Shown here: piece by piece, positions 1,559 to 35,840 of the stretch | Position numbering within the stretch: position 1 is the first letter of the stretch | Layout: each line of letters starts with the position of its first letter | Assembly: GCA_965285935.1 (NCBI GenBank) | Contig: OZ260661.1 | Coordinates: 62,434,001-62,498,000, forward strand | Reading direction: 5' to 3' | Source of the DNA: Ophelia neglecta | Lineage: Eukaryota | Length of the DNA: 64,000 nucleotides | Notes under the pieces: generated by a model | Told to the model about the DNA's origin: nothing | The model's input: only the letters and a program-made list of their open reading frames with translations | The model's database searches: none | Translations under genes and position numbers: made by a program

Positions 1559-1713
1559 AGCATGTGTGACAGTTTCCAGAAAGAAAAATGGAGACAACAG
1601 GGCACCGGGTAAACGGAAGCCCAGAGGCAATGGGACAGGCGAACGGGAGGCGGAGAAGTCTATAAGGAGACTAAGTAAGTGACTTTAAGTTAAATTCGAG
1701 GGAAGATAAAACT

Positions 1714-7179: not shown

Positions 7180-10100
7180 ATGTATATACGAAATCAGATA
7201 TCTCAGGCCACGAAATGGATCATTTTTATCTGGATAGTGGCTCCAATTGTCCGCTTTTGCAATGGTAATTATATTTTCGCATATAGATTTAAATGCGCAA
7301 TTGAAGCCGTAGCTTAATATATAATAAGTCTAGGCATATAATATAAGACTGTACACATTCTTTAAAACTAAACGCCACCGCAACTAGCTATTAAAAGTAT
7401 GTTAGTGCTGCAGTAGTTAAAAATAGGTACATAAATATAGGTGGAAGGATTCATTCTCGATTGCTGTCACCTTACTTTCACTAATATGTATCTGTGTATT
7501 CAAGGCAGCGGAGAATCAGGCTGGGTATATGATGGGTGTTACGTGTATACACCACTAGATGTACGGACAGACCACCAAGACACTTATTACGATAGCTTCT
7601 GGAAAGCTTGGAAAACGCCAAACTTTACTGAAGATCGGTGTATGTCCTCCTGTGCACTGAGAGATTACTCGTATGCTAGCATAGTGAGTTATTTTTCATG
7701 CCTTTTAACTGAAAGTACATCGAGCAGTTTAATCCAGCATTTCAAAAATTGCCAAAACGAAGTAAAAATCAGTGGAACCATTCGAGCGAAACAAGGAACA
7801 TTCATCAAACACACATTCTTGTAGATTGATATTTTTTCTTTCAGTTTATGTCACATTCTATATGCGGCATATTGTCAGATATATATCATAGCTACATGAA
7901 TATCTTACCATTTGTAACAATCCTGTGACTATAGTATATTAATATTATATACATTTGAATTGTGCATTATTGTTTTATGTGCTGTCTTCACATTATATGA
8001 GACTCCTTGCACTGTTTAAATCTAAATCAGTGTTTTCTGCTTTATTAGCATACATAGACAACACATTAATGTTCATCGAATGCGAATGTCATGCATTTTT
8101 TTTTCGTTGTTTAAAGTCGTATTACTGGATGTCGGGAACGTTGTGGTTAGAATGTTGGTGTGATCGTCTGCCGATTAACGAGAGCAGGCGTCATCCGGTT
8201 TGTCCGGAGTCCTGGGACTGCTTTGGAAAGACATGCATTGGCCACAATCACTTGATACATGACGTCAACACAACGAAGTTGTATGCGACAGCATTCAATC
8301 ATTGTAAGAATATTTATTTGACAATTTAAATTAATGCCAATTTTAATCTTGACATAATTGCTTCCACTTTGTTTAAGAAGTGGGATCGGTCAGAACTTTG
8401 AACCACTTTATTGAAAAAAGGAAACTTTTATTCACATGTGGAAAATTCCAAAAGTCCGATTTGCTTCAAATTGAGCACACCGCATACATATGGGCCCGAA
8501 CGATTTAAAAGTTTTATGAATTGAGAGGAATGATTTGCAATGAATAAAATTGGAGGCAAATGAACTTTAACCTGGAAAAGTGCGATCTGATTTAATGAGC
8601 TACATATTCTGATGTAACGTTTATAGTTTCGTTACATTAAGAAGGTAAAACTGCAGAGCATTTACTCAATATGCATGTGCCCGTTTTCTCTCTATACGTG
8701 CTGGGGGAATTGTAGCTTATTTGTTTGACTTGACATGTATTGTGTTTCGAGCCGATATTAACACTCCTCAAATGTATTAAACATGCCATTAATATGTTGA
8801 GAACAAATGCCAGAATCCTGTATTTAGACAAGCAACTGTTTCAAAAAGTGGAAATAGAACCGTCATCCATTGTCAATTGGGGCAATATTAAACTTACTAG
8901 TCCATCAAGCCATTGTTCAACAAGAAATGGTACGGTGGTGGAGGCGGATTATAGTCCTGAAAAATATAACATAGCATTATCTGGGAAACAATAATTTGGT
9001 TTCGCATGAGCAACTCACCATTTTTTTGTACAACTGAAAACTTGGTCACGAAAATTTAACATCAGTCACATAACCAATTAAACTCAAATCTGAAAATGAT
9101 ATTAATACTAGAGGCATGGAAAACATGTTCCACACCAGCAATGCTATCCCCTCTCGAGTTTTGTATGTAGTTCATTTTCCATGACAACTATTGTCTGCAA
9201 ATCAATTTTACCCCCTATCCTAGCTTAACAATAACACGTAAACAAGAGTTGAATAGATCCCTGGTAAAATCACCCTTTAATAGCATAGAGATGACTCATC
9301 AATCAGCTGAAAATACCCATATTGATTACTGCCTTACTGCCAGGGTCATACTAAAGGACAAGCATGGCTCATGCCAGGATAATTAAAATACAATGTTTAT
9401 GCATTCCCAGTTGCTTTATTTCAGCGACGACAGGTACAGACGTGTATCCTACCATATCAACAGTTTCTGACAAGCCCTCATTATCGGAAGTAATAACGTA
9501 TAGAGGTAGCATGGAAACGGATGTGAGTTCATTGGTTTGAACATTCCCTGTAATCATGGCAAGAGCAAAAAAGGAGGTTTTGATGCTTTTGTATGCATAT
9601 TAGATATCTATGTAAACATATTTTCTATTGTATATATGCAAGTCAGAATTTACAAAAATAAAATAAATCAGCCATTTTGCGTACCATTTGCGAAGTATTG
9701 ATACTAGTGAGTCCTCTATTGGCCACATGCCGTTGAGGAATTCCTGTCTATTGCAAGAGATTGATGATATTGTTATAGGTTGATCGTAAAGCAGATTTAA
9801 GACCAACTGAAAGGCCTGACTCAACAAGTACCTTAGGCATCACCGGAGTGGCCGTGGTCGACGGGAGTAGTCTTTCAACGGTTACCATTACAGGTGCAAT
9901 TGTTAATAAACGAACCATCTACATGTTGATTTATTGCTTAAATGTGTAAAACAATAATTTGGTAAGGGTATGAATGTTTCGTTTAAATATCGGAATTGTT
10001 TCAGACACCATGCGTTGGTATCGAATAAACGGTATTTATTCTTTTAACAAATATATAAACATAAAGTGTTCATAAGTTGTATTATCCATTCTAATCCAGC

Positions 10101-10878
10101 ATTGGTATTGGCAGCCGTAGTGCCTTTTACAATTGCAGTTGTCGTCCTTATTCTTGCCCTGTGTTTGAAGAGAAAAAGAAGGTGAGGTAGTTTTTTTTTC
10201 TTGTGGCAATATCATGATGGTACATAAGATTGGGGTAGGGGTCGATGCCTGGAATTTGCTAAGCCAGTGATATATTTATTCACGTGATAGCCGCCGATGG
10301 GTTGTTATGTACAAAAAGTGTTGCCATTTGAAAAAGGGGTTTTTGTTCCTTTGTTTTTCAGATCAAAATTAAAGAAACCTTCTTCTCCAACGAATAAATA
10401 CAATAACCCTGTATATGGAGATATAGGCATGTGTAGGGAAGCAGCTCATCGTTCTCAGGCCATAGATACAGGATGGCCTTTATATGAAGAAATTCCTGGT
10501 GAAAGAACAGCAAGAAACATTCGCCCTGATGTTAACATCCGACCAGAGTTTAACTTCTCGTCTGATCAGGCATGTGCTGGTCCCGACCAAATGTATGCTG
10601 TTCATGTCAGTAGAACCAAAGAGAGGGGGGACATTTATAAAATGTCAAATTCAAATGGTAGAGCTCACATGGCCACCGAAAATTATGCCGGGCATTTTGC
10701 TGTGGGTTCATCAAATAAAGGCAGCCCTGACACAATGGATTGTAGGTCCTTACCACAAAAAAATAATGCATTGGCATTACATGAAACAATTCCATCTTCA
10801 GAGGCAGCATTTACCAGACAATACATCTCAGAGAAAGACAACAGATGCACAGAGAATGTACACATCTCGTTTATGTAG
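7180..10878 (+). CDS. Single-pass type I membrane protein with WSC-like domain, S/T stalk and Tyr-motif cytoplasmic tail (multi-exon)
   Basis: Phase-consistent exons: 7180-7264 (signal peptide MYIRNQISQATKWIIFIWIVAPIVRFCNG); 7505-7683 (WVYDGCY…TEDRCMSSCALRDYSYA); 8117-8303 (ECWC…CPESWDC…C); ~9425-9505 and possibly 9837-9892 (S/T rich); 10100-10181 (TM LVLAAVVPFTIAVVVLILALCL KRKR); 10362-10878 (NPVY, YEEI). Confidence 0.7.
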
Positions 10879-13365: not shown

Positions 13366-13872
13366 TCACTTTTTCACCTCTCCACAGTAGACGATTTCAA
13401 TGCGTACTTTAGGTTTTCCATCGGCTGTCCCTTGCTCTTCAATAGCCCTTACCACTTTCATCCCCTTGATCACTTGTCCAAATGCTACATGCTTTCCGTC
13501 CAGCCAAGGGGTTTTAGCGGTGCAAATGAAAAATTGAGACCCATTTGTATTCGGACCCTCGTTTGCCATGGACAGAATGCCTGGACCTGCATGTATCTGT
13601 TTGAAATTCTCGTCGGCAAACTTCGGCCCATATATACTGATTCCACCGAGCCCGTTGCCTTGCGTGATATCACCTCCCTGACACATGAACTTTGGCACTA
13701 TTCGATGAAAGACTGTTCCTTTGTATCCGAAGCCTTTCTCTCCGGTACACAACGCTCGGAAATTTTCGGCAGTTATCGGTGCGATGTCCGAAAATAACTG
13801 AAAAGTAATTCTGCCAACGTATTTTCCGCCTATCGATATGTCCATGTAGGTTTTTGGACGTTCGGTGGCCAT
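13366..13872 (-). CDS. PPIA: Cyclophilin A-type peptidyl-prolyl cis-trans isomerase, intronless
   Basis: 168-aa ORF with [19 protein letters not shown]…FHRI…FMCQGGD…[35 protein letters not shown]. Confidence 0.95.
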
Positions 13873-15502
13873 GTTGATATAGTAAGGTTATGCGAAAGTA
13901 AAATGATTCATATACAAAAACGAGTTATCCAACTTTCTGCTTAAGCTTTTCCAGATTAGAATATCAGTGTCAAACGTTTCCACATTAAATAATTAGGCGC
14001 CTGAAGAACTGATTAGATATTAACAATAGCACAATTCCCTCATTGTTCTCCTTCGTCAATGTTGTTGTTGATTTTCAAACAATCTGTGGCTTATGGTGTT
14101 TATTCATATTCAGCAGTTCGAACTTTCATTTGGATCATACGCGGGTTATAACAGTGATAATACAATAGTGTTGTGACTGCTACAAAGTATCGTAAAGGTA
14201 GTGTTTATTTTCAATTAGTTTCTAATAATCTTAAGCCACAAACTTAGTTTTCCCAGCATGCATTCTTTCTTATCTCTGTTGGATAACGGAAGGTGCCACA
14301 CCGAATCACCCTTTATAATAAAAGGAATACGGATCCCCGACGATATAGAATTCAAACTATCGAGTTTAAGTAACCTTGAAACAAGTTTTAGAGGACAACC
14401 AACTGGGGTAGCCTATAATGGTAACTCCCACAATTTAACAGAGCAGCTAAGTGGAACAGTAATTAAAAATGAAGTATTTCACAACAGCATCATTAACAGA
14501 CATAATGCATATTAATTATTGTCGATGTCGAAGGTGTGTGAACGTTCGTGAAATACTTTGACTCAACAATTTCATTTTGCGTTGTAACAACCACGAGTTC
14601 TTCTGGAACAACTTTTTGTTCAGTAAACTTTGAAACCAACTCTTCTTCTATTCTATCGAAGGTATGGTTGTGGTGATTAACTATATGTTCATATTTTTTT
14701 TCTATATTACTTTTCTATATTAATTGTTGAGATGATAACTTGTCCAAAAAAACCTGAATTTATAAAATGCCTCCCGCCGGCCAGTTCAAAGTTCGGGTGC
14801 GGATCTAAAGGCTACAAGGATGATACATCCGGGTCCATCAGAAGACATGGATCCTCTTTTTCACCTCTCTTCCACATCCAAGAGTTGCAGGGCTTTCACT
14901 GGATGAATTATTACATACAGACCAGGTATATGAGGCTACCATGGTTGTTCGTACTTGCGACACCCAATTTCGTTCAGTCGGCTCTAGAAACATTACCGAT
15001 TTGACCAACTTCAGCCGACTTAGCTATTCAGTACCTTAGGATACTTGGCTCGCGCTGAGAACTCAGTGTTGACTTACCTTAATTCAAAACGGTATCGTAT
15101 TTCGTCAGTGATACAGACAGGTGCAATGAGGGATCGGTGCAAACTGGTAATCTCAATCGTAAGCTTTTGTCAACTTAAAAATTCATTTAAACATGTTTAA
15201 TAAAAAGGATTATAGTTGGGAATAGAAATGACAATAAATGTTCTTGTTTCTTGATGGATTTTAAAAATTGGTCTGTTTTATTAACGTTTAATCACGACGA
15301 GAAAGTCGAGGAAGACTCAGAAACTGCTGTATCCTAAATTTAAGCTATTCAATGCTGCTTAAAAAAAATTAGGAAATGATTTCGTGTCGCAAACATTCTT
15401 TGCATAACGGAAGTTGTTAATGTTTTTATTCACAATTAACCATCGATTATGGTATCTCTAGATACTTATTTTGGGTGTTAATTCGTGTCAATTATTTTTC
15501 AG

Positions 15503-16944: not shown

Positions 16945-16950
16945 TATAAA
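16945..16950 (+). promoter_or_regulatory. TATA box of the large secreted protein gene
   Basis: TATAAA about 80 nt upstream of the signal-peptide ATG at 17029. Confidence 0.5.
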
Positions 16951-17028: not shown

Positions 17029-20000
17029 ATGAGGCTACCAGGACACAGATTAGCGCTGTTATTGACCGTGCTATGGCTAGTGTCCCTTGGCACGGCGACG
17101 AAACCAAAGGGGGAGATGGAGTCCGATCAGGATGGGTATGACTACGAATACAGAGACGAAGATGCTACATCGTAAGAAAATAACTATACATTATTTACTC
17201 TTTCAATAAAAAAGCTTTTAAAAACCAAAAATATATCGTATAGTTAATTGCAATGTCTACAACGGGACTGGGAAGCGTAACAAGCATTAAGCTTGCTCCG
17301 TTTCGTTCAATTTCAATTTTTATTTCTTTCAATATCGTTTACAATTATGGACTTGAAAATTGATGTTGTTGGGCCCGCAGCTGGAGGTGCTTGTTTAATT
17401 TGAACCGACTTAGCCCTAACGCTGATATTAGACTGTCTTCCGGGTTAATACTCCCATTTCTTTCTGACTGAATGGAAGAACATTTTTTTTGCGGCAAGGG
17501 CTTGTTGAAAGGGTTACAAGTAAACGGGCAATTCCTGGCCCAAATTTTGGACTGTCTTACGGGTTACACTCCTGTTTCGTTATGAATAAATTGAATAAGA
17601 ATTAAATCATTTGCGGCAAGGTGCTGCCCAGATGTATCAAATAAGTTGGTATAAAAAAGAAGGGATATTTTTTCGCTGAGAAAACCCCATTAAAGAAATT
17701 AAAATTAACTATAACCAAAGGCACTTGTTTGATCACTATCCGGGACCGGTAGTCACATGATCTTAACAATGGCAGGGAACAGACGTATGGCGATGTAGGG
17801 AATGGTCAGTCTTGTATAAAATGTTATTACAAGATGCCGAATCAGACGTGTAAAGAGGACAGGAGGATCGCTCCGCTGCTGACCAGCGTGAAAGTGATCA
17901 GGACAGAGCTGAAGTTTCTTCAAGCCAATACCGGCAGACTGATTAAATCAGGTAAAGTAGAACACTGGTAGAGCATCTTTGGCCTTTTAAGTAAAAGGCA
18001 GAGATAAAAGTAGGACAATGTTAGAAATATTGGCCAACATATTCGTAGTTGCATTATCTTTGATCAACTTTCTTCATATATATTTGGTTTAAACATATTT
18101 ATTTGGATTGACCGAGTAGCGCTAGGCTAATCGAGCGGCCTCTCCTAATATCATATCAATTTGCGGATATTACTATTTCTCAAATCGTGTTCTATGCTTT
18201 AAGCCGTGGAGGGGCGTCTTAGAAAGTTTGTGAAGGAAATTGGCAGTTTGAAGGCTCAGAACCGAGCTTTACAGGCAAAAACGAGGACATTATTAAATGT
18301 CGTCAGCACAACAGGTATGCTTACCGGTGTAGATTGTCTTTAAAATTTCGTTTAACAATCACTTCTAATTTTATCATTTGACTTTCGACATATTCACCTC
18401 ACCGGTTGCATTTATTTATTATCTTCTATAAAAGTGAGCGAATGGTCAACGACCATGAAGATATTTGCCAAACGCAGCACAATGTCAAGGCCAATCCCCC
18501 CAAAAGCTATAAGAACAGTAAAAACTAGACCACAGGTTTCACCAAAAGTACCAATAGGAGGAAAAGGTAGGGATCGACGAGTAATGCAACAGATTGAACT
18601 ATATTATTCATAGTCTGTCGAATTGAATTTGTAGGCATTTTTATATGAGAAACTACTATATTGTATTTTTTTATATTTATGGTTTAGCCAAATATGTTTT
18701 AATTAATTAATTGATTCATTCATTCATACCAGTCATAGCGTAATTACGGTCCCATACTAATAACTTGCCGAGCAAATTTCCCTGCTTTTTTAGGCTCAAA
18801 ACCTACTAGAAAAACATCTGCACAATACAGCAACTGTGCGCCTGGCTACCCGAAAATCAACAACGGCAAGTACATGTTGAAAGGTTATGGATCATGGCCC
18901 AAGGATAACTTCTGCCGTGACATATACCCCCGGGTTACCCGGGGTTCGTCCTATTCCTTTAGCCTCAGGGTGTTTAACCCCGGTAATAAAGGTACCTTCG
19001 GCCTCATGTACAATGTTCTCGATAAAAACAACTTCAACTTCATCTATTTCAGGTATGCCATTTTTCCTTGTCCTAGGACCCTTCACTGCTGTAGACATTT
19101 TATTTCATCGTTGCTTTTTTAAGTGTCGGCTAAAATACGCAAAATTTGATAAGCATGAGCCCACTGTTGAAATAGTTTTCTGTTTGACTTTTTTTTTATT
19201 TTACGTATCGCTAGGTCAGCCTTAGCCAATCGTTGCTACCAAGCCGGGTATATGAAAAACGGCCGTTTGAATTGGTCTGGGGATAATTCCAACAGTTGCA
19301 AAAAAGTGTTCCCTCTCAAGCTAAATACTTGGCATAAACTTCATGGACGGGTACGTGCATGACTACATAAAATGGTTAGGTTACCCCAATTGTGTTAAAT
19401 AAGACTGGTAGTCTAATGTGTCTTTCGGTAAAATATATAGGCTAGGCCTATACATATTAATGTGTACACTGATTGTTTGTTATTGCAGGTATCCGGCAAC
19501 AATGCAAAATTCTACATAAACAAACATCTGGTTGCCAATGTGAAGGGCGCATTTGGTGGAAAGGGAAGAGTAGGTGTGATCACAACTAATGGACAAAGCA
19601 ACCCTATATACTACCGTGGCATGTCCGTCAGGGCTTTTAGGCCCTCCAAGGACACAACTACGACTACCGTTGCTGGTGAATTTTCTATTTATTTCAGTCC
19701 TAGGAACTATATATATATAGTATTTTTTTTAAATCGCAATATGATTTTACAGTGTTAAACGCCTGCAAATTTGCAATTATATTATACATATATTGAAGAA
19801 CCAACCTTTTTGAAAAAAAGGAAAATAGATTATATAAGTTACTTGGCGTGACCAGTCTAAATACAGTCTTTAAGGTGACCAGTCTGTAAACACATTTGAC
19901 AAAGTGGTGAAATGAACAGTACCCTTGTGAACCAATATGATTGAATTCATGGCTGGTTGCCCCCAATAGAACTCCTATACTGTGCAGGAGTCTGTTTTTT

Positions 20001-23000
20001 TTTTTTTAACTTTTCTAGTAACATAAAAACGACATGATTTATATTTTCACTATTATAACTAAGATTATGAAAAAATAAGTGACTTGCAAATTAATAACAT
20101 GTTTATGTATTGAAGTTCATGACATTTAAACATCCAAAGATCGGTCAAATAGACATGTTTGACAATTCTAATCTACGAAACGAAGTCAAAATACCCTGAT
20201 CAATATTCATGACAGTAGGCCTATGTACTGGGCAAATGTCTGGAATATATAAGACTCTCCTGTGTATCTTTAGGTTACAGATCATCTGGCTGCGCCAAGA
20301 TGAGCAAAGTAGGAGGATACTACATTCTGGATGCCACAAGTTTGAATAGGAAATGGCCCAGGGATGGTTTCTGTAGTGCTATGTCACCCCAGAAAACTAC
20401 CGGGAGTCGCTTCAGCTTCTCATTGTATTTGTGGAATCAGATTTCTAATGGCAAAATCAACAGTGGCCACCCGGGCGTACTCTTCAACGCTAAAAACAGC
20501 AAGAATTATGATTTTATATACTTCAGGTAGGTTGCAATTCTGGATTGCAATTTACTTTTATTCAAACGGGCATACTTTTTAACGCAAAAGACAGCATGAA
20601 TTATGATTTTATATACTTCAGGCTTTCAATGTATGATTGCGCAACAGTAAGCCTGCATTGTCAAATATAAAGCCTATTTTGTTCGGGATCAAAGTCATTC
20701 AGTTGAATAAATTAAGATTCCACTATGTATGATCTTTTAAAACAGACCTCATAGCCGCAAGTCGTGCTACCAAACAGGATTTGTCAAAAACGGCATTCCC
20801 GTATTTACTGGTGCCAAGAGCGGAAAGTGCAACGGCGGTACTCCTAAGGGCAGACGCTGGTTTAAGGTGACGATCAGCGTCGACAAAAACAGGGTAACCA
20901 CGTACATTAACAACCGTAAAATTGTTAAGTTCAGGAGCCACTTCGGTGCCGGAGGGTATATGGGAGCCTTAGCCGCCAATGGCTACACAAACATTGTCTA
21001 CTTAAAGAACCTTCGCGTGCTTTCCTCAGGTATATCTAAATATACTTTGGACTAATCCGTTTCAACGATGCATTATGTGCTTATATCATGTCTCAGAAAA
21101 AGTTCTCATGAAATTTTTGGGTCTATGATCATTTAACCTGCCTATTATTTTAAAACAAAAGCACGTACTACTACTGAACTTATTGTATATTGTTTTAACA
21201 GCAAAGGTTGAAAAAGCCAAAGGTGTCATCGGAAAAATAACCAAAATAGGAAAGACTATGAAAAAACACTTTAGTGCACTATTAGGTTACAGATCAACTG
21301 GCTGCGCCAAGATGAGCAAAGTAGGAGGATACTTCATTCTGGATGCCACAAGTTTAAATAGGAAATGGCCCAGGGATGGCTTCTGTAGTGCTATGTCACC
21401 CCAGAAAACTACCGGGAGTCGCTTCAGCTTCTCATTGTATTTGTGGAATCAGATTTCTAATGGCAAAATCAACAGTGGCCACCCGGGCGTACTCTTCAAC
21501 GCTAAAAACAGCAAGAATTATGATTTTATATACTTCAGGTAGGTTCCAAATGTGGATTGCAATTTATTTTATTTAAACGGGCGTACTTTTCAACGCAAAA
21601 GACAGTACGAATTATGATTTTATATATTTCACGTTCTCAAATTAAGATTGCAAAACAGTAAGCCTGCATTGTCAAATATAAACCCTATTTTGTTCGGGAT
21701 CAAAGTCATGCAATTAAATATATTAAAATCTTACTATGTTTGTTCTTTTAAACAGACCTCATAGCCGCAAGTCGTGCTACCAAACAGGGTTTGTCAAAAA
21801 CGGCATTCCCGTATTTACTGGTGCCAAAAGCGGAAAGTGCAACGGCGGTACTCCTAAGGGCAGACGTTGGTTTAAGGTCACGATCAGCGTCGACAAAAAC
21901 ATGGTAACCACATACATTAACAACCGGAAAATTGTTAAGTTCAGGAGCCACTTCGGTGCCGGAGGGTACATGGGAGCCTTAGCCGCCAATGGCTACAAAA
22001 ACATTGTCTACTTAAAGAACCTTCGCGTGCTTTCCTCAGGTATATCTAAAGATACTTTGGACTAATCCGTTTCATCGATGCATTATGTGCTTATATCATG
22101 TCTCAGAAAAAGGTCTCATGAAATTTAAGATCTATGACCATTTAACCTGCCTATTGCTTTAAAACAAAACCATGTACTAGTACTGATCTTATTTTATATT
22201 GTTTTAACAGCAAAGGTTGAAAAAGCCAAAGGTGTCATCGGAAAAATAACCAAAATAGGAAAGACTATGAAAAAACACGCTAGTGCACTATTAGGTTACA
22301 GATCAACTGACTGCGCCAAGATGAGCAAAGTAGGAGGCTACTTCATTCTGGATGCCACAAGTTTAAATAGGAAATGGCCCAGGGATGGTTTCTGTAGTGC
22401 TATGTCTCCCCAGAAAACTACCGGGAGTCGCTTCAAATTCTCATTGTATTTGTGGAATCAGATTTCTAATGGCAAAGTCAACAGTGGCCACCCGGGCGTA
22501 CTCTTCAACGCTAAAAACAGCAAGAATTATGATTTTATATACTTCAGGTAGGTTCCAAATGTGTATTGCAATTTAGTTTATTTAAACGGGCGTACTTATC
22601 AACGCAAAAGACAGTACGAATTATGATTTTATATGCTTCAGGTAGGTTCCAAATCCAGCATTGCAATTAGTTAATTTAATCGGGCGTACATATCAACTTA
22701 AAAAACAGCAGGATATATGATTTTATAAACTTCAAGTATGTTCTCAACTTAAGATTGCAAAGCAGTAAACATGTAGAATGAAATATATAGCCATTTTGTT
22801 CGGAATTAAAATATCAAAGTCCTTCAATTAAATATATTAAGGTCACATTATGTATGTTCTTTTGAACAGACCGCATAGCCCCAAGTCGTGCTACCAAACA
22901 GGGTTTGTCAGAAACGGCATTCCCGTATTTACTGGTGCCAAGAGCGGAAAGTGCAACGGCGGTACTCCTAAGGGCAGACGCTGGTTTAAGGTGACGATCA

Positions 23001-26000
23001 GCGTCGACAAAAACATGGTAACCACGTACATTAACAACCGGAAAATTGTTAAGTTCAGGAGCCACTTTGGTGCCGGAGGGTATATGGGAGCCTTAGCCGC
23101 CAATGGCTACAAAAACATTGTCTACTTAAAGAACCTTCGCGTGCTTTCCTCAGGTATATCTAAAGATGCTTTTAACTAATGCTTTCTTTCGATGCATTAT
23201 CTGTCTAAATCATGTATCAGAAAAAGGTCTCATGAAATTTTAAGATATATGACCATTTAACCTGCCTATTCTTTTTTAACAAAACCACGTACTAGTACAG
23301 AACTTATCATATATTGTTTTAACAGCAAAGGTTGAAAAAGCCAAAGGTGTCATCGGAAAAATAACCAAAATAGGAAAGACTATGAAAAAACACGCTAGTG
23401 CACTATTAGGTTACAGATCAACTGGCTGCGCCAAGATGAGCAAAGTAGGAGGCTACTTCATTCTGGATGCCACAAGTTTAAATAGGAAATGGCCCAGGGA
23501 TGGTTTCTGTAGTGCTATGTCTCCCCAGAAAACTACCGGGAGTCGCTTCAAATTCTCATTGTATTTGTGGAATCAGATTTCTAATGGCAAAATCAACAGT
23601 GGCCACCCGGGCGTACTCTTCAACGCTAAAAACAGCAAGAATTATGATTTTATATACTTCAGGTAGGTTACAAATCTAGCATTGCAATTTAGTTTATTTA
23701 AATGAGCGTACTTTTCAACGCAAAAGACAGCATGAATTATGATTTTATATACTTCAGGTTTTCAAATTAAGATTTCAAAACAGTAAGCCTGCATGGTCAA
23801 ATATAAAGCATATTTTGTTCGGGATCAAAGTCATGCAATTAAATATATTAAGGTCACATTATGTATGTTCTTTTGAACAGACCTCATAGCCCCAAGTCGT
23901 GCTACCAAACAGGGTTTGTCAAAAACGGCATTCCCGTATTTACTGGTGCCAAGAGCGGAAAGTGCAACGGCGGTACTCCTAAGGGCAGACGCTGGTTTAA
24001 GGTGACGATCAGCGTCGACAAAAACAGGGTAACCACGTACATTAACAACCGGAAAATTGTTAAGTTCAGGAGCCACTTCGGTGCCGGAGGGTATATGGGA
24101 GCCTTAGCCGCCAATGGCTACAAAAACATTGTCTTCTTAAAGAACCTTCGCGTGCTATCCTCAGGTATATCTAAATATACTTTGGACTAATCCGTTTCAT
24201 CGATGCATTATGTGCTTATATCATGTCTCAGAAAAAGTTCTCATGAAAGTTTTGGGTCTATGATCATTTAACCTGCCTCTTCTTTTAAAACAAAAGCACG
24301 TACTACTACTGAACTTATTGTATATTGTTTTACCAGCAAAGATTGAAAAACCCAAACGTGTCATCGGAAAAATAACCAAAATAGGAAAGACTAAGGAAAA
24401 ACACGTTAGTGCACTATTAGGCTACCGATCAACAGGCTGCGCAAAGATGAGCAAAGTAGGAGGCTACTTCATTCTGGATGCCACAAGTTTAAATAGGAAA
24501 TGGCCCAGGGATGGTTTCTGTAGTGCTATGTCACCCCAGAAAACTACCGGGAGTCGCTTCAGCTTCTCATTGTATTTGTGGAATCAGATTTCTAATGGCA
24601 AAATCAACAGTGGCCACCCGGGCGTACTCTTCAACGCTAAAAACAGCAAGAATTATGATTTTATATACTTCAGGTAGGTTCCAAATCCGGATTGGAATTT
24701 AGTTTATTTAAACGGGAGTACTTTTCAACGCAAAAGACAGCACGAATTATTATTTACATATTTCAGGTATGTTTGAATTCCAGGATTGCAAATAATATGC
24801 TTATGCATGCAGAGTCAAATATCAATCATTAGTTCAAAATAAGAATAAAAAAAAATAAAAAAAAATCGATAAACATCATATTATGTCTTTATTTTTAAAC
24901 AGACCTCATAGCCCCAAGTTGTGCTACCAAACAGGGTATGTCAAAAACGGCATTCCCGTATTTACTGGTGCCAAGAGCGGAAAGTGCAAAGGCGGTACTC
25001 CTAGGGGCAGACGCTGGTTTAAGGTCACGATAAGCGTCGACAAAAACAAGGCAACCGCCTACCTCAATAACCAGGAAGTCGTCAAGTTCCGGTCCCATTA
25101 CGCTGCTGGAGGGTACATGGGAGCCTTAGCTGCCAACGGTTACAAAAACATTATCTACTTAAAAAGCCTTCGCTTGCTTCACACAGGCAGCGCAAGTCAC
25201 TCATCCAGCTCATCAAGTGGTAATTTGATATTAAAATGTCTATAACGATTCAATTCTGTTTGTGATCTTCCATAGTCCATATGAAGCCAATACAGATTGT
25301 TCCTGAGGAGATTGTGAAAATTGTGAGCTCATACGGTATATGCACCCGCTGCTATGATTCTAAGGTCTCAGAGAGCGGTTTCATAATTCCTAGTTGAAGC
25401 ATTTACAATTGGAGATTACAGTTCCACAGAAATTGTGCTGATCTCCTACTCTCCACATATATTTCCCACTCCAAAAGAAATACCCCATTCATTCTACGAT
25501 TTTTCAAGCCCCTGAACTTCGAAGACATAACTAATAGCTTATCTCAATGTCCATGTTAGCCCTTCCATCCCCATCCCACCCCCATCCATTGATTGTTCCA
25601 TTCCTTTAACCTCCGTCCTTCTTAGCCACCAACATTTGTCCTACTTCCATGCTAGACCCCTTTTCCAACCCCCTCCATAACTGCCATTTCAAATTGAAGA
25701 TCATGTTCCTTGGGGTACACGCTCTATGATTTTTGACCGGCAGGTGGCTGTGCCGTTGAATCCATATTTGTCCGTTGGAAGATATGGATTTGACGTCACA
25801 GATTTCAATATCCGCTCTAGGGCAGATATGCCTTTCGTCATATTCACATTCATATGATTGTAAGCGCTGATTTTCATGCCGCGCCTTGTGCGCCACACGC
25901 ATCGTGGTAAGTCGTGTTCGGCGGTTACCTTTGAGGTTTGCCGTTCAGGTAATAGTCGTGTTTAGCAGTAATCTCCGCGCTATCTGTCCCTAGATAAGGA

Positions 26001-29000
26001 GAACCAGAAGTGGCCCAGAAAGTTTTGACGAAATGAAAAATTTGCTGATGCGCCAGAATCCCTGTTATTGCATTTATTTCACACAGAATCCCTTTAAAAA
26101 ATCAAAAAGCCATAGCATGTGCCACATTCTATGGTAAATTAATTTCTTCCTCATAATCTTCACGGGCGTGTGATAAGTATATAATCAAACTGCGTTTTTT
26201 ATATCTGCCCTCGGATGGCCATACCTTACCTCGCCTTGCGGCCGGCAGATACTCGGGCCGATATTGAAAATGCACTGTGATATTATGTTCATACAAATAG
26301 TGTCTGGTTCAAAAGTAGTACATGAACTTCGTCAATAATCGTCGTAGAGAGTCGTACAAAAGCAATTCGATTTGTCTTATCCGTAATGGATGTACTTACG
26401 TTATATATGTCTGCTTTATAATGTGATACTTTAAATTAATTTACTGCCAATGAAGGATTTTACTGTATTCAAGATAAAAACGTTATGGTGTTCACATATT
26501 TCCACAGTTGTCGTGCCCTGTAAAGGCAAGGGCTCCCCTCTGACGGACGCAAGTGGAAACAATTTGTTCTGTGGGCGAGGACCTAACCGAGTGGCTTGTC
26601 CCGGAAACTCATGGTGCCACATCCACCCGACAGATCGATTTGCCGTCTGTTGTCCTAGAAAAGGTAGTAATATGTGTCTAGTTGGGTCGAAGTTTGCATA
26701 GCGAACATTAATGATACAAAGCAGCGTTCAGTGTGTTTTGTGCACCTGACGACGTGTACAAGTTGTTATGACATTGTGTGATTTTGAACAAATATAGCAA
26801 CGACCATTAACTTTTATATAAAATCGTAAATTATATGTGTCTAAAATGTGCAAGTTCTTACCAAAGTATTAACAATGTGTTGATATAAGGTATGGAAGCA
26901 ACTATTATTAAAATGTCGTGTAAACACTATTTCAAAATACATAGTAGGAAGGACGAAAACAAATGTGGACGCAATTTATATTCCTCACTTCGAACTATTA
27001 AGAGAGGAGTCCCCCATGTTTTTAAGATATAGCAGTACACATTTAGTTCATTTTGTTGAGTGGCCCCTCTGTTGGTAAATAGAATACACGAACGACTTTA
27101 TTGCGAATAATGTCCTTGACCTTAAAGGTCGTTTCTCACGGGCTATGACCCCAAACTGGGCATTAAATCCACGTTTTGTTGGTGAAAACTAACAATAAAA
27201 TAATATTGTCTCGCGCTACTGTGTTCATAATCAATACGAGGAAAAAACAAACGGTTAAATTTCAATGACTTGAATTAAAAGAAAGGGTCACCATATTATG
27301 TTTTTCAATAACTCTAAATGTTGGGATAATAGGATAATCCGTGAAACAGCATAGTTGTGGTATTTGAGCTGATTATTCTAATACAGTTTTTAGGAAACAT
27401 AAGCCTTGTGATCCAATATTTTTCTTCAAATTATGGAATTAAAACCTCATCTTATTGAGGCGTGTTAAATATGGAGGATTATATTCAAAAGAAACGTGAA
27501 ATGGCGATTCAAGTGGCATATTCTTTAAAACCAAAATAAGATACTAGTACTGAACTTATCGTGTAGGCAGCAAACTTTTGAATTTGGGACATATCATGTA
27601 CTATATTGTTTTTACAGCAAATGTGGGAAGAGCCATAAGCGGCATCAGAGGAAAAATAACCCACACATCGAAAATCAAAATTGGCAATGAACATAGAACA
27701 AGTCACACAGTTGAAGCTGGCAGCAGCCACTCAGTTAGCCATACCCATACTAGCAGTCACGCAGTCAGTGAAGGAAGTAGAGTTCACAGATTGTTGAGCG
27801 GCAGCAAACGGAAACATTCGACGAATTCAATGCACGTTTTTAAGGGAAATATAGGCAGGAGAGGAAGCGTATCTGCTATTCAGTCTGGTCACTCAAGCAG
27901 CTCCCATTCCGTGTCATCATCTGGTACCTTGAAGCACTCGAGTTCAAGCCACTCTTCGAGCAGCTCCAGCCATTCCGTAGGCCATTCCAGCTCTGCAAGT
28001 GGTAAATCGATATTAAATTGTCTGAAATAGTTCAGTAATGTTTACCAGCTTTATACACAGTTCCTGTGAAGCAAATAGAGCATTCGCTTGAGGAGAACAA
28101 GGAAATTTATATGTCCCTAGGGTACATCCTCCTAGTGATATGATTCCGAGATCTCAGACAGTAGTATCATAATTGCTATTTGAAACATTTACACATGGGG
28201 ATCTTAATTCCACGTGGTTATTGAAATAATTGACAGATACAGTTGGCTTCATTATTTACCTATAGTAACTACGTAATGCAAGGAAATAGGCTAAACGCCC
28301 AACCTCTACATATATGGTGGTCAGTGGTCAAACCCTACTGTCCCCTCCACCCCACCCCACCCCCTACCCTCCCCCCTTTCCTGACTTTATAAACACACCA
28401 TTGTTTAAATCCTCCATCCCCGGTCCTCCTAGCCATTGCCCTTTATCTTGTCCCAATATTCATGCTAGCCCCCCCCCCCCCCCCCTTCCCTACCCATCCA
28501 TTGTTCCATTTCTCCAGCCCCAGTCTTTCGTAGCCACCACCCTTTATTCTACCTCCATCCTGCTGGCCATTCCACATTTAGGAGAATGACGCCTGGGCTA
28601 CGTGCTCTAAAACATTAACTGGCAGAGACTAGTTGGTAACATAGAAGATAAATGGAGGTTATTATAAGGCTATATAATTATAGTTGTCAGGTGATTTAGT
28701 GTTGCAAGGTAAATCACGACTCACGTCTCCTGCAAGTGCGTGTCCCATAATATGCAAACCTATGTGTCTATAGGACGATCAAAATTGACAAAGTTCCAAA
28801 TTCAAAAATTATATTTAGTAATATAAATATGAATTTTAAATTCTAGTCTCCAATATGACCCTTAAAATGCCAATCCTGAGAATTATACATATTGCGGTAT
28901 CTGCCTTAAAACTTAACCGCCTTTTGTTTCACACGCTTCACATCGACTTCACTTATATATGTTAATTAGTAAGGTTTTGTCGGAGTGTCTCGTTTTGTCG

Positions 29001-29693
29001 TGACGTCACACACCTTTGTATGATATTTTTCGCACAGGGAAACCGGAATGTGAACAATCAATAGGCCTATCGCTTCTTTTTTCTAAAGAATTCCAGCCGC
29101 TTCCAGTGATATGGCCCTCTTGCTGTTATATTTGACAGTGTAGTCAATACCTGTGAATTGGGATGTGGTTTTTGTCGATATTCCGTCCATTCTGCACGTA
29201 TTTGTCAAATGTTCAACCAGCGTGGTTAAAAAATTGGATATTTCAAATAATGTTCATTTTTAAGTACTATTTTAAAATTTACATTAGTTTTTATTTGAAA
29301 GCAAATCGTAAAAAAAATGAAATTTAAATTTTTAGTCTTCAAATTTGAAAAATAAAAAATGTGGATTTTTTTCAATCTCTTGTGCCTACTCCACTGGACT
29401 CGGTTTGTAATGCTAAAATATATTACAATAAAATACTCTTATAATATTCCTGATGATTTCGGACCGATTAATGGATTATTCTAGAATAATGTTTCAGCTT
29501 TGTCTGCCACTATTTGTTTTTTTAATAGGCTTAACTTTCTTCTCAAGCAAATGAAGTTATTTTGAAAGCTATGATTTGATTTTGACTTTAAGTAGTCCTA
29601 GCTATAGTCCCTTACATGAAAGAGTAAACATACAATTATCTGTTCAACCTTTTTGCAGGTTCTTACCAATACGAAGAAAGTAATGAAGTTTAA
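17029..29693 (+). CDS. ~1590-aa secreted basic protein: signal peptide, coiled coil, 6 ConA/LamG-like (TSP-C/DUF1080-like) domains, Lustrin Cys-rich domain, Ser/His-rich tail
   Basis: Phase-consistent GT-AG exons: 17029-17171, 17776-17951, 18204-18314, 18435-18566, 18794-19052, 19215-19350, 19489-19675, 20274-20526, 20746-21029, 21202-21538, 21756-22039, 22211-22547, 22870-23153, 23326-23662, 23881-24164, 24337-24673, 24903-25219, 26508-26663, 27618-28001, 29659-29693. Total 4773 nt, open to TAA. N-terminus MRLPGHRLALLLTVLWLVSLGTA. Confidence 0.8.
20274..25219 (+). repeat. Five-unit intragenic tandem duplication (~1.0-1.1 kb period, two exons per unit)
   Basis: Near-identical exon pairs (…KWPRDGFCSAMSPQ…NYDFIYFR / PHS.KSCYQTG…RWFKVTISV…GALAANGY) and conserved introns. 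Confidence 0.95.
26180..26286. repeat. Palindromic MITE-like element (intronic)
   Basis: Imperfect inverted repeat: ataatcaaactgcgttttt…atatctgccctcgg vs ctcgggccgatattgaaaatgcactgtgatattat. Confidence 0.4.
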
Positions 29694-30194: not shown

Positions 30195-30200
30195 AATAAA
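30195..30200 (+). terminator. Polyadenylation signal of the large secreted protein gene
   Basis: AATAAA in a putative non-coding last exon starting about 30057, after a 3'-UTR intron. Confidence 0.4.
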
Positions 30201-31799: not shown

Positions 31800-34700
31800 A
31801 TGTTGTCCAATTCAAGTCTTGGGCAAAATGAAACCAGCAGTTCGACCCGGGATGGTAGTTCGTGGGATGATGCAACCTGGATTTTATCGATGTCTTTTAT
31901 TATATTTACAATGCAGACAGGCAAGTGTTTTTGCAATGATTTTAAATAATATCTACTCCTTAGGCATATAAAGGATTAAACTGTTTTAAAGTTGTATATA
32001 ATTAGGGCTTGGTCGATTTTCTTCTTAATTTCAATTTTTTTGCTACATTGTAAATAACTACATGACCGCAGCTTAACCACTCCTAACTTAATTTGAAATA
32101 AACATAAGCGTGTAAGAGCTAGGAAAAAGGCTGGCAGACATCCTGAAGAAGGGGGTTTTCTTCTTATAGGTTTTGGCTTGTTGGAGGCTGGGGCTGTGCA
32201 ACTAAAGAACGAGGTGAACATAATGATCAAGAACGTCGCCGACGTGGTTTTCGGGGGGCTGACCTACTGGGCCTTCGGCTATGCTTTTAGCTTCGGCACA
32301 TCGTATGGTAGTAACCCCTTCTGTGGAATCGGCAAATGGTTCGTATCAACGAGCGATCTGGAAGTCATGGGGGAACTGTACTCAAGTTTTATTTTCCAAC
32401 TTTCCTTTACTACCACTGCTACTACCATCGTATCCGGAGCGATGGCGGAGCGAGCCAAACTGAATGGCTATATAATCTTCTCTTTCCTGAACACGCTGGT
32501 CTATTGTTTTCCCGCTCACTGGATATGGGCTGACAATGGGTTTTTAAGGGCCATGGGCGTGGTTGACATTGCGGGGTCGGGAGCAGTCCATCTACTGGGT
32601 GGGACATCTGCATTTGTTGCTGCTTGGATGCTTGGACCTCGCATCGGGCGATATGACAAAGGCTACGATTCTACCCCGCCGGGAAATCCTACAAACTCCT
32701 TACTAGGAACCTTCATGCTGTGGTAAGCTTTTGCTAAGTTTAAATTCGAGATTTTATTTTCTTGTTTTGCCACGTGTCCAGTGCTAGGTATAAAATATTT
32801 AAATGTTTGTTCTTTGATGAATATTCCCTCATCTAAATAGCTTCATATCTCTTAGGTGGGGTTGGTTGGCATTTAATTCCGGAAGCACCTACGGAATTTC
32901 AGGCGGAAAATGGATACTTGCCGCAAAGTATGTGTATAACAATGATAAACAAATATAGTTTATTGTGACACACGATTCTATTTCCTTTAAGTTGTACCCA
33001 TTGCTTATCTTTAACCTTGTACCACATTATGTCATCGTAGGGCATCAACAACTACCATGCTCTCATCCATGGGAGGAGGGTTGGCAGGGATGGCGATAAC
33101 GTATGTCGATATGTTTAAAAGTTTCGTTAATTTTTAACGATGGCCTTAGCTTACCATGCCTATATTGTTTTGGTTGAACTACATCGAAATACACCAGCCG
33201 GCGAAAAACATTTGATAATATAAAACCCGTTCATTTTTCATTTATAACAGGTATATAAAAAGGCGGAAGTACGATGTGACGGATATAGTTAACTCAATCC
33301 TCGGGGCGCTTGTCGGCGTTACAGGTTTGTCAATTGAGACTTGTCTTTAGCTGGAGGTGTCTAGGAGACATACTGATGAGTGCATAATGGCGAAATATTT
33401 AATTTATCAGGGAGTAATTGTGAAATATTCAATTTATTAGGCTAATTGGCGAATATAATGTTATGGTGAAATATTCTCCCGTTAAGGGAACTTTGTTGTT
33501 GCCTCTTTATTGAATAGTCTTAATCAAAAGAATTAGATTTATAATGATAAGCGAATAATAATTATTCAAGTTGGATTTTAGTTAGGTGTAGGGACTTTAG
33601 CTCTTTTTTCTTACTGCTTACTGATTTTAAACACATAACATGCATAAAGTAGAAAAGTTACCCAGATCGAACACAGTAGGTTTTTTCTAAAGCTATTAAA
33701 TGAGGAGTTAATTTTTTGTTCGTGTATTATCAACACTGGTACTATTTGTTAATGGCGGGACAGCTTACTCATCATGGGTATGAAATCCATAACCAGTATC
33801 ACGGTTTTTAGTGGCAAATTTGCATGATTCTTGTATGATATAGGATATATCACTCCGTGAAACAAAGATTAATGACATATTTCCTTGTAATGGTCATTAT
33901 ATTGTGACACAACGGTAGGTATCAAATTAAAGGTAGTCCAAACCAAAACCCTTTGAGGATAATTAGGCGATTGTGGCATGTTTTTACTTCATGAGCTTGA
34001 ATAAATAATCTCTCTTTTATCCCTGTAACGCACATATGAGTACCGACCTTTTCAAATGGCCCCGGGGGAAAAGTAGGACATGTCTTCGTCTGCAGTTCGA
34101 TCTTGCGGGCTTCTTGTTTGCCAAGTGTGCACTCCCGTTTTAGACCAATAACAAAAACATAGTACTAGAGTATACTAAAGGTCTATATAGAATCTCTCCC
34201 GCACGGAGGCGCCACTGCAAGACCAAAGATGACTGCAACCTCCGAGGATAAAAAAGGTCAATTATTAGCCAATCAGTCGCGTGGTTTTTTTTGTAGGCGA
34301 ATATATTGTGATCGGTGGTCGGTCAGGTCGGGGGTGTCTCGGGAAGTGAATATTTGAAGATGGTACGCGTTATCAGCATAGGATATTATGAATGGTTTAC
34401 GATCGTTTGATTTCAAAAGGGTGAACAAATTGATTCTAATCTGTAGTTCCATACCAGTACTGCTACCATGCTGCTAGGCGTAATGTTTGCTCCCTCAAGC
34501 AGGGTCACTAGTTTCTACGGCAAAAAAATGAACAAAACAGTTAGCCGAAGTTGGTATATTTTCCTACTTCTCGGTTTAATACTCTCATAGTGACGAACAA
34601 TTTCACGTCAGTCTAATTTCCCAAAGAATATTCTTATTTTCATGTTTCACGACTGGAAGCGTTATAATGGCCACAAAATTTAATGAGGAATTCAAAAACA

Positions 34701-35840
34701 TGTTTTACCCTAAATATGGCGGCCCCCTTCTTAAACAATTCAAGATGATTTAGAGCGTTCAATGTGCATGTTACGCGACTGGTTTCGCCTCGCGGGGCTG
34801 GACCGGACAGGCAATTTAGGCATCCTCAATAGGTTTGTTTTTTTGTATCACAGTGTGTCTTTCATTGTAGCTGGCTGTGCTATTTACACGACTTGGGAGG
34901 CAGTGATCATTGGACTGATTGGAGGCACTTTGTCCTGTCTTGCTCCCGCCGCAGTGAACAGATTAAAAATAGACGACCCAGTCGGAGCCGTGGCCGTCCA
35001 TGCTGTGGGCGGAATATGGGTGAGACGAGTTGATTATATGAATTTAGAAATATATTTATCAATCAAGTGATCGGAAATCAGAGAGTTATTGTTATTTGAA
35101 TGGTTATTTTGGTTATAAGCGAACTTTTAAACTTCATGAAAATCAATGACAGCGTTTTCCATACAACAATGCATTTAGTTCTCAAACTTGTCTGTAAAGG
35201 GAATGTTGGCCGTTGGTTTGTTTGGAGATGATGATCGTATTGAAAACTACACCGGTGGCAGAAAAGGTTTATTTCGAGGAGGAGGATTTTATCTTCTTGG
35301 TATTCAAACGCTCAGTTGCCTTTGCATCATAGTTTGGAGCATGGGCTGCACAGCATTCATATTGTATGTAGGTAGACTATCGATGGTTTATTTTTGCAAG
35401 AGTTTTCAAGATGATTTAAACTTTCAATGTCTTTCCAACTATTAAATAGAGCCTGCATTTCTTTCAATATTTTTTTCCAGCCAATAAACAAAACCGTTGG
35501 AGTTCGCATAGAGGCTTGGGAGGAAGAGCTGGGTGTTGATTATGTGGAACATGGTATTTTGAGAGACCCATGTGTCCGCGAGCTGGTGAACATGGGTTAC
35601 CCGCAAGACCAGAGGATTGTGCCACGCATCAGCATGCACAGTTCGTTTGGAGTATTGAGTGGACATACCAGCAACACTTTGGAAACAACACCAAGAAGGA
35701 CGCCACCTGCAACAACCAGCACTACAATATTTGTTACGGAAGCCGGAAGTGACGTTGAGGGTGTGACTAACGCAGCGATGGATGTGGAGGCTGCCCAGGA
35801 TTTTACTACCAGTCCTTCCTCAGTAGATGGGCACATTTAG
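31800..35840 (+). CDS. amt: Ammonium transporter (Amt/Mep/Rh family), 8 exons
   Basis: Exons 31800-31920, 32170-32722, 32856-32927, 33041-33100, 33251-33324, 34871-35019, ~35200-35367, 35481-35840. Motifs FTMQTGFGLLEAG, FQLSFTTTATTIVSGAMAER, DIAGSGAVHLLGG, LWWGWLAFNSGS, IDDPVGAVAVH, EELGVD. Confidence 0.93.

Follow-up and report, generated by a model that had tools for sequence, protein, structure and literature searches.

The six repeat domains of a predicted 1,590-aa protein, encoded on the forward strand of the window (the whole 64,000-nt stretch of DNA that was analysed), are assignable by full-length homology to a ~ 175-aa domain family represented by the annelid lectin AML-1 and the coral skeletal protein USOMP-7. 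The original prediction had been unable to match the protein to a described family; in fact, both its repeats and its layout of signal, cysteines, helix and domain are those of AML-1 and USOMP-7. It is set apart from these homologues by the high charge of its domains, by Lys-rich linkers of amphipathic character, by a Ser/His tail and by a single Lustrin exon acquired through shuffling.

Gene model and exon organisation

The gene model was built from DNA only and runs, like all features given below, on the forward (+) strand, from an ATG at position 17029 to a TAA at 29691–29693 (20 exons, 4,773 nt). GT-AG boundaries were present at all 19 introns, and the terminal stop was the sole stop of the joined chain, compared with 83 and 90 stops in its remaining two frames. 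Additionally, purifying selection among the repeats was evident in ten of ten repeat pairs (dN/dS 0.09–0.35). The model, and with it the predicted complete 20-exon ORF, was confirmed, with weak acceptors at exons 2 and 4. A candidate TATA box (TATAAA, 16945–16950) lies 84 bp 5′ of the ATG, and the first AATAAA/ATTAAA-type hexamer 3′ of the stop (30195–30200) is a candidate poly(A) signal.

Exon 1 (17029–17171) encodes a signal-peptide-like stretch (aa 1–23, judged by eye) and the acidic Tyr motif DQDGYDYEYRDED (aa 33–45). Exon 2 (17776–17951), present as one copy in the genome, provides the cysteines C61xxC64...C73 and, downstream of them, a first heptad run with hydrophobic residues at seven of eight a/d positions (aa 79–103), and exon 3 (18204–18314) a second run (8/10, aa 108–140). 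The acidic Tyr-rich N-terminus, the CxxC...C pattern and the coiled coil had all been correctly anticipated. Homo-trimer prediction for the exon 2 product scored 0.29 against a mark of 0.32. No similarity of the N-terminal region to AML-1, USOMP-7 or a collection of 144 proteins was found, and a genome search with exons 2 and 19 returned self-matches only.

A Lys/Arg/Pro-rich spacer (aa 150–198, net charge +13) is encoded by exon 4 (18435–18566), the divergent domain 1 by exons 5–7 (18794–19675, comprising 18794–19052, 19215–19350 and 19489–19675) and domain 2 by exons 8–9 (20274–21029; 20274–20526 and 20746–21029). Four pairs follow: exons 10–11 for an amphipathic Lys linker and domain 3 (21202–22039; 21202–21538 and 21756–22039), exons 12–13 for a linker and domain 4 (22211–23153; 22211–22547 and 22870–23153), exons 14–15 for a linker and domain 5 (23326–24164; 23326–23662 and 23881–24164), and exons 16–17 for a linker, domain 6 and a short Ser/His run (24337–25219; 24337–24673 and 24903–25219). 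The phase 1-1 exon 18 (26508–26663) holds the single Lustrin_cystein domain, exon 19 (27618–28001) passes from a degenerate linker start into the Ser/His tail, and exon 20 (29659–29693), just 35 nt long and placed on DNA only behind a strong acceptor, supplies the final 11 codons and the stop.

Presence of the Lustrin domain was verified (PF14625, 34.4 bits against a cut-off of 27, E = 2.8e-8), as were the Ser/His repeats (43 Ser, or 31%, and 16 His in a tail of 138 aa). Together with upstream intron sequence, exon 18 is 77% identical at the DNA level to a Lustrin exon of contig C2 (237 bp). Five Lustrin matches were seen in the genome, one of them within the window, and other Lustrin exons are part of a gene of Kunitz/antistasin type or have trypsin-like genes as neighbours. 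At its 5′ end exon 19 is similar to the linker exons, and its 3′ portion and the intron that follows are similar to exon 17 and intron 17.

Homology, fold and charge of the repeat domains

Domains 2–6 are mutually 88–98% identical, while domain 1 shares just 32–34% identity with them. The prediction of six Lys/Arg/Tyr/Gly-rich domains held in so far as there are six domains of ~ 170 aa, Lys-rich and acid-poor (2–3% acidic residues); domain 1 proved divergent, and Tyr content (6.1–7.5%; 4.6% in the whole protein) fell within the family range (mean 5.2%, maximum 8.3%). Domains 2, 3 and 6 aligned to AML-1b with 33–34% identity (E 1e-34 to 7e-35; domain 2, 5e-35) and to USOMP-7 domain 2 with 39–41% identity (E 3e-42 to 5e-43; domain 2, 3e-42), the domain 2 alignments spanning 168–172 aa. 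Domain 1 reached E values of 1e-19 to AML-1b and 2e-24 to USOMP-7. Single-exon comparisons also confirmed this homology, and AML-1 and USOMP-7 are themselves homologous (38% identity). The candidate identity USOMP-5 was ruled out: papers link USOMP-5 with egg proteins and fibrinogen-like domains, and the database names read USOMP-7.

Comparison of 57 homologous domains gave 39 conserved columns (conservation in at least 60% of them), of which 30 were kept in domains 2 and 6 and 27 in domain 1 (the domain-cutting profile included the window domains). The family motifs GH..G..N, N.DF.YFR.H, W and NGY.N and the four Cys were recovered in the window domains. In AML-1b numbering, domains 2 and 6 retain the four Cys, His128, Asp142, Arg147, His149, Gln160 and Asn227-Gly-Tyr229, and domain 1 lacks His128, Asp142, His149 and Tyr229. 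Ser126, Ala226 and Tyr229 of AML-1b are common to the window domains, but Gly120, Trp121 and His150 are not. Trp121, found in 20 of the 57 homologues, is replaced by Asn, and Gly120 by Ser, as in AML-1a; these differences may have modified or abolished the binding of sugar.

The family is predicted to adopt a ConA-like beta-sandwich closest to CBM66, in agreement with the fold originally proposed. This was modelled on homologues: an AML-1b model (pLDDT 82) best matched CBM66 (PDB 4b1m; Z 19.5, rmsd 2.2, 156 aligned), followed by the galactocerebrosidase lectin domain (Z 17.4) and the thrombospondin C-terminal domain (Z 16.3), and a two-domain coral model gave Z scores of 18.3, 16.1 and 15.3 to the same three. 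At 12–14% identity, the likeness is one of fold, and ligands are not transferable. A sequence search of PDB returned no chain with E below 0.2.

Net charge of the domains (+22 to +25) lies outside the range of the 57 homologues (−12 to +11), and nine paralogue pieces from the same genome range from −8 to +9; the whole protein carries +207. Linkers occupied 22 of the 25 top 18-residue windows by hydrophobic moment (0.49–0.56; protein mean 0.21, SD 0.12).

Several loci on contigs C2, C5 and C8 carry expansions of the domain family. In a quick tree of 69 rows, domains 2 and 6 grouped with eight of nine own-genome paralogue pieces (SH-aLRT 91, unstarred) and domain 1 formed a long unplaced branch; deep branches lacked resolution, and no direction of descent is therefore claimed. 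Coral DNA contamination was ruled out, as the gene has introns, lies on a 149-Mb contig and has paralogues on three further contigs; the host is likely an annelid. A genome search for the mollusc haemocyanin family returned no match, though the controls likewise gave none. One metagenome match of 19 residues in a bacterial-looking contig was taken as chance.

Relation to known secreted proteins

Similarly to the window protein, the lectins of Arenicola marina (1A, ADO22713.1; 1B, ADO22714.1) come from an annelid and have a signal peptide, N-terminal cysteines, a predicted helix before the domain (AML-1b aa 33–49, low confidence) and a 33% identical domain with four Cys and the GH..G, YFRPH and NGY motifs. 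However, they are only 241–243 aa long, with a single domain close to neutrality (net charge −1 to 0), dissimilar N-terminal parts, and neither amphipathic linkers, Lustrin domain nor Ser/His tail. AML-1 reportedly agglutinates and is up-regulated on infection, and lectin 1B, unlike lectin 1A, is said to bind chitin/GlcNAc. In its accessible part, the original report describes AML-1 as a chitin-binding protein from coelomic fluid (Vitashenkova et al. 2012, doi 10.1074/jbc.M112.420976).

USOMP-7 (Acropora millepora B8WI85) and its relatives share the domain at 39–45% identity, are secreted and basic, and combine a signal, Cys, a short helix-like run and tandem domains. Several metagenome-derived exon fragments break at YFR|PH, as do the window introns. 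The octocoral protein XP_028405452.1 (Dendronephthya gigantea) even has six tandem domains, but without long linkers and coiled coil. USOMP-7 itself differs in having two domains, ~ 420 aa (422) and a net charge of +16, and named homologues lack the Lustrin domain and Ser/His tail. USOMP-7 was found in coral skeletal matrix, according to the accessible parts of PMC3748352 and PMC4043741.

Pfam contains no separate family for AML-1, and a literature search found no paper linking it with USOMP-7; a term search found USOMP unmentioned in PMC9532382 and PMC11959691, and the accessible portions of PMC3722494, PMC9756803 and PMC12960093 bring in Arenicola solely for antimicrobial peptides. The tie to a biochemically tested annelid lectin suggests that coral USOMP-7 is a lectin too. 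USOMP-7 has counted as an orphan since 2013, and the tie provides it with a function open to testing, namely binding of GlcNAc/chitin, together with a CBM66-like fold.

Sabellariid cement proteins (Pc/Sa-1 to -5) are likewise annelid, secreted and basic, with Ser- and His-rich stretches. They are short low-complexity chains of 128–405 aa (GY-rich, H-repeat or SY-rich) for which PMC12621633, in its accessible part, lists no conserved domains and a Ser content reaching 72.9% (Pc-3), whereas about two thirds of the window protein is folded domains. The same part of that source describes the cement as basic His-rich proteins, phosphoserine proteins and sulfated polysaccharide.

Proposed role and alternatives

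Six copies of the domain common to AML-1 and USOMP-7 point to sugar cross-linking, and we therefore propose, at a little under even chances, that the protein is secreted and acts as a multivalent cross-linker of N-acetylated or anionic polysaccharides in annelid mucus, tube or cuticle material. That the protein is secreted, multivalent and unusual in overall architecture, as predicted, is supported. The N-terminal signal would direct secretion, and the cysteines and ~ nine heptads would bundle several chains, multiplying the heads. Each of domains 2–6, with conserved polar residues kept, may hold a glycan bearing GlcNAc or acetyl groups, for example chitin, domain 1 having probably lost its glycan site. 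Lys-rich, acid-poor surfaces and linkers could then condense with sulfated or phosphorylated polyanions, contacts of the metal-His or phosphoserine type could come from the Ser/His tail, and the Lustrin domain may act as a disulfide-locked spacer or protease guard. If it is a structural secretion, the protein would stand beside the low-complexity cement proteins of tube worms as an equivalent built from folded lectin domains, and would be of interest for underwater adhesives.

Several observations speak against a cross-linker: the sole homologue of tested function, AML-1, came from coelomic fluid rather than tube (on the accessible part of its report), Trp121 is lacking, USOMP-7 relatives occur in non-calcifying cnidarians, only a single S-x-E site is present in the whole protein, and tail Ser is 31% compared with 72.9% in the accessible record for Pc-3.

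A plausible though doubtful alternative is surface or coelomic defence by an oligomeric agglutinin, with heads that would capture microbes or parasites and cationic amphipathic linkers that would attack membranes, perhaps after proteolytic release, thus joining lectin heads with antimicrobial-like helices. Cysteines, coiled coil and lectin head make up the collectin/ficolin design, which the protein follows, and the coelomic origin of AML-1, the hydrophobic moment of the linkers, the inhibitor- and protease-associated Lustrin exons and the expansion of the domain family all fit this role. However, the near-identical repeats are under purifying selection, unlike the diversification usual in immune receptors, the sole R-x-K/R-R site lies inside domain 6 with none flanking the linkers, and the Ser/His tail has no obvious part in agglutination.

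A broader scenario is offered tentatively and with less confidence than the cross-linker: AML-1 and USOMP-7 would belong to a single, so far overlooked family of CBM66-like lectins present in cnidarians, annelids and certain microbial eukaryotes, whose coral members would tie GlcNAc polysaccharide into the skeleton. In the annelid, amplification of an exon pair, surface supercharging and exon shuffling would have yielded a polycationic lectin able both to bind chitin and to form tube or glue material by coacervation with anionic mucus, with antimicrobial-like helices between its heads. The window gene illustrates how such a lectin can become a highly charged multivalent protein through duplication of a two-exon unit and import of a Lustrin exon.

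A matrix protein linking a polysaccharide scaffold with mineral in a calcified tube or like structure is unlikely. USOMP-7 is a basic protein (pI 9.26) occluded in the skeleton, a Lustrin domain is present and the N-terminal patch is acidic, but the domains are nearly free of acidic residues and the family also occurs in a sea anemone, a hydrozoan, a lugworm and a microbial-eukaryote transcriptome. In abalone Lustrin A, numerous Cys-rich repeats occur alongside Gly/Ser segments and alternate with Pro-rich ones, whereas the window has a single Lustrin exon, recently shared with other loci of its genome. Of the matrix role originally proposed, the homologue from a skeletal matrix proteome stands; the shell role does not suit a likely annelid host, and the nacre and DOPA readings are weak, since Tyr is not enriched relative to the family and other Lustrin exons lie in or beside protease-inhibitor and protease genes.

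It is improbable that the model is over-joined, with true transcripts that are shorter, skip repeats or lose the Lustrin and tail exons to another transcript. Read-through of exons 8, 10, 12, 14 and 16 meets a stop directly past the donor, that of exon 19 after nine codons, and copies of an exon end are present in introns. On the other hand, all exon phases are compatible in a single frame, exon 19 and its flanking introns derive from the repeat unit of exons 10–17 (69–82% DNA identity), visual inspection of the sequence between exons revealed no further start accompanied by a signal-like stretch, and contig depth across the repeats was ~ 3–4× that of single-copy flanks (three contig sets, one sample).

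Sugar-modifying catalysis, as in bacterial 3-keto-disaccharide hydrolase/hydratase (PF06439) relatives, is very improbable: such enzymes are among the structural neighbours (Z 13–15) and weak PF06439 matches were obtained (21.5 bits for a half-domain exon, 18.3 bits, and 20.7 bits for USOMP-7), but single-domain scores fall under the cut-off of 26.8, the accessible part of the report on the lone tested homologue calls it a binding protein, and non-catalytic CBM66 and lectin domains rank above the enzymes.

Gene model and history of the repeat array

Exon boundaries of the gene at 17029-29693 (+ strand) were read from DNA alone, with weak acceptors at exons 2 and 4. The coordinate-built model bears out the original prediction of a complete 20-exon ORF: all 19 introns are bounded by GT-AG, and the 4,773-nt frame encodes 1,590 aa with a single, terminal stop (the remaining two reading frames of the spliced gene contain 83 and 90 stops). 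The predicted protein (pI 10.4, net charge +207) comprises, in order, a signal-like stretch called by eye, an acidic Tyr motif, three Cys, two heptad runs (hydrophobic residues at 7 of 8 a/d positions in the first and 8 of 10 in the second), a spacer that is basic and rich in Pro, six ~170-aa domains, a Lustrin domain and a C-terminal tail of 138 aa containing 43 Ser and 16 His. The Lustrin call was confirmed by a match to Lustrin_cystein (PF14625) above the Pfam cut-off (E = 2.8e-8).

Amino-acid identity among the repeats was 96-98% for domains 2-5, 88-90% for domain 6 and 32-34% for domain 1, the duplicated unit being two exons (linker plus first half, then second half) with their introns. 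In all ten pairs of domains 2-6 dN/dS lay between 0.09 and 0.35, with non-synonymous divergence of 0.7-5.9% versus 3-25% for the corresponding introns. In a single sample, which may itself have been the assembly's source, the repeats formed collapsed contigs at ~3-4x the depth of single-copy flanks; among the differences listed, 14 exonic ones were translated (nine silent, five missense, no stop), with four possibly being between-repeat differences. The gene is real and under selection; its function is a prediction.

The introns splitting domains 2-6 also carry one or two copies of the last ~55 bases of the exon before, with a 94-bp period (20567-20622, 21578-21634, 22587-22760, 23706-23759 and 24713-24791). 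Some retain a GT donor, use of which would run past the true donor into a nearby stop, giving truncated forms.

Membership of a lectin family

A Pfam scan of the repeats returned PF06439 only, below threshold. Protein searches recovered cnidarian relatives (3, 45 and 8 proteins) with cluster names of USOMP-7, a coral skeletal matrix protein with two such domains (Acropora millepora, Swiss-Prot B8WI85). A profile run against 1.84 billion representatives yielded 526 proteins at E ≤ 0.001, 224 at 1e-10 and 49 at 1e-30. The 20 representatives whose names were checked, a small sample with no mollusc protein, included Arenicola marina lectins 1A, 1B, 3-1, 3-2 and 4-1, a Nematostella USOMP-7-like protein, proteins from Oculina and Hydractinia, and a single transcript of a marine microbial eukaryote; most of the remainder carried no name.

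Lectins 1A (ADO22713.1) and 1B (ADO22714.1) are presumably the proteins labelled AML-1, here AML-1a and AML-1b. Domains 2, 3 and 6 aligned to AML-1b with 33-34% identity (E ~1e-34) and to USOMP-7 with 39-41% (E ~1e-42), and AML-1b aligned to both USOMP-7 domains with 38% (E = 2e-38 and 3e-35). The earlier view that no described family matches is thus overturned: the gene is a new variant within a small, barely studied lectin family, not a new family. This link between AML-1 and USOMP-7 is the most useful outcome of the analysis, and no report of it was found in the main texts of the largely open-access literature searched.

Across 57 non-redundant homologous domains, 39 columns reached 60% conservation or more. 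Of these, 30 are retained by each of domains 2 and 6 and 27 by domain 1, which has lost the family residues His128, Asp142, His149 and Tyr229 (AML-1b numbering). AML-1a and AML-1b differ at 17 columns; in conserved motifs the picture is mixed, as the window protein agrees with AML-1b at 126, 226 and 229 and has Ser/Asn in place of Gly120/Trp121. AML-1 reportedly has GlcNAc affinity, forms disulfide-linked oligomers and is expressed in epidermis and coelomocytes; AML-1b is said to bind and AML-1a not.

AlphaFold models of a two-domain coral homologue (pLDDT 81) and AML-1b (pLDDT 82) are all-beta ConA-like sandwiches, so that the predicted fold holds for models of homologues. Their top structural match was CBM66 (Z = 18.3 and 19.5), with further matches to the galactocerebrosidase lectin domain and the thrombospondin C-terminal domain, although such likeness between modelled folds is no proof of function.

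In species and name, lectins 1A/1B agree with a protein reported by Vitashenkova et al. (2012); the title of that paper, as cited in PMC12430416, speaks of a chitin-binding coelomic-fluid protein that defines a novel family. Other sources describe USOMP-7 as an uncharacterised skeletal protein with a signal peptide and pI 9.26 (PMC4043741), with homologues in Nematostella (PMC3748352) and across cnidarians (10.1101/594242). A transcript labelled USOM7 is tabulated for a coral-eating fireworm and is therefore of uncertain origin (PMC8160350); PMC9673494, which modelled coral proteomes, might note the USOMP-7 fold. Among papers retrieved for USOMP-7 together with Arenicola lectin, the one with Arenicola cited it for a peptide.

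The repeat domain was also seen in four microbial-eukaryote-looking proteins (one an MMETSP record); the family may be older than animals or have been transferred between lineages.

Distinctive features and proposed function

AML-1 and USOMP-7 share with the window protein the layout of signal, cysteines, helix and domain, with no detectable sequence similarity between their N-termini and that of the window protein. Dendronephthya XP_028405452.1 likewise has six tandem domains, and an unnamed 803-aa protein has four after a coiled-coil-like run. The novelty originally claimed for the architecture narrows to domain charge, amphipathic linkers, the Lustrin domain and the Ser/His tail. Net charges of the window domains were +22, +25 and +23 versus -12 to +11 among the 57 homologues, owing to high Lys (8.6-10.1%, family mean 4.9) and low Asp+Glu (<3%, family ~8). 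The 35-aa Lys-rich linkers opening exons 10, 12, 14 and 16 surpass every other helix of the chain in amphipathicity. Tyr content is inside the family range, which leaves the suggested DOPA-based, Tyr-rich adhesive without sequence support.

The Lustrin exon (exon 18, phase 1-1) was absent from all 32 scanned homologues of the repeat domain, whose partner domains were PAN, EGF, TSP1 and WSC. It shares 71-80% protein identity with three exons on contig C2, and 77% DNA identity with one of them across 237 bp including the upstream intron; this reach into the intron and the phase suggest that it was likely acquired through exon shuffling. Inspected by eye from ORFs, the C2 exons follow a tandem cluster of trypsin-like exons (72184001-72204000) and adjoin trypsin-like genes, and a fifth match lies in a multi-domain gene with Kunitz- and antistasin-like exons (contig C1, 68300001-68310000). 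Papers retrieved on Lustrin, annelids, tubes and proteomes were mollusc-centred.

We tentatively favour a secreted multivalent glycan cross-linker, a reading we hold at somewhat under even chances. Chains would be bundled via cysteines and coiled coil, sugar would be bound by domains 2-6 (as the chitin-binding homologue and the carbohydrate-binding type of fold suggest), and charge would drive condensation with polyanions; sabellariid cement combines oppositely charged proteins with sulfated polysaccharide (PMC12621633). The tail might conceivably supply metal or phosphate contacts, although the whole protein has a single S-x-E site. A defence protein would share the bundling and sugar-binding steps and differ in target; in its favour are the origin of AML-1 in coelomic fluid, the amphipathic nature of the linkers and the association of the Lustrin paralogues with protease inhibitors, and we regard it as rather unlikely. 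A mineral matrix protein is improbable. Exon 19, encoding the tail, resembles the linker exons at its 5' end (80% across 60 bp that include the acceptor); its 3' end is like that of exon 17, and introns 17 and 19 are alike too, with 69% identity across 228 bp and 73% across 119 bp. The tail thereby looks like a seventh unit minus its domain and is tied to the same gene; a mis-joined model is very improbable. Enzymatic repeats are the least credible reading, scarcely to be expected.

Paralogues and other features

Additional copies of the repeat domain lie on C2, C5 and C8 of the genome (762 Mb, 223 contigs); separate searches gave 20, 18 and 26 exon matches, and at least two paralogues resemble small secreted one-domain genes. 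In all, about a dozen such domains on these contigs, neutral to acidic, lie in tandem or inverted clusters.

Within the window, intron 2 holds a ~60-bp very high-copy element, MITE- or SINE-like (18084-18146; bin depth in the thousands versus ~30). Adjoining open frames at 1675-3573 (+), broken by stops and frame changes, appear retroelement-remnant-like by eye; the one frame scanned gave no significant Pfam match. A sub-threshold WSC-like exon and, downstream of it, a frame containing Tyr motifs (7441-10878, +) may belong to a membrane receptor gene, and an intron-free cyclophilin ORF (13366-13887, -; PF00160, E = 3e-49) is a possible retrocopy. Ammonium transporter exons (32097-35840, +), a single-exon rhodopsin-family GPCR (39176-40387, +) and a sulfotransferase-like ORF (46947-47939, +) follow, with no link to the lectin gene shown.

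Erythrocruorin linker exons above the Pfam cut-off occur in the genome. The mitochondrial genome (17,755 bp, code 5, genes on both strands) reads cox2-cox3-nad6-cob-atp6-nad5 plus nad1-nad3-nad2-cox1, with genes named by eye from ORFs and atp8 not located. The former block is described for annelids in PMC7682095; here it is inverted relative to cox1, which is uncommon among annelids. Together with the erythrocruorin linkers, the block makes an annelid the likely host. The chitin synthase family (PF03142) gave 21 matches at about ten loci on C2, C5, C8 and C9, several in long intron-poor frames.
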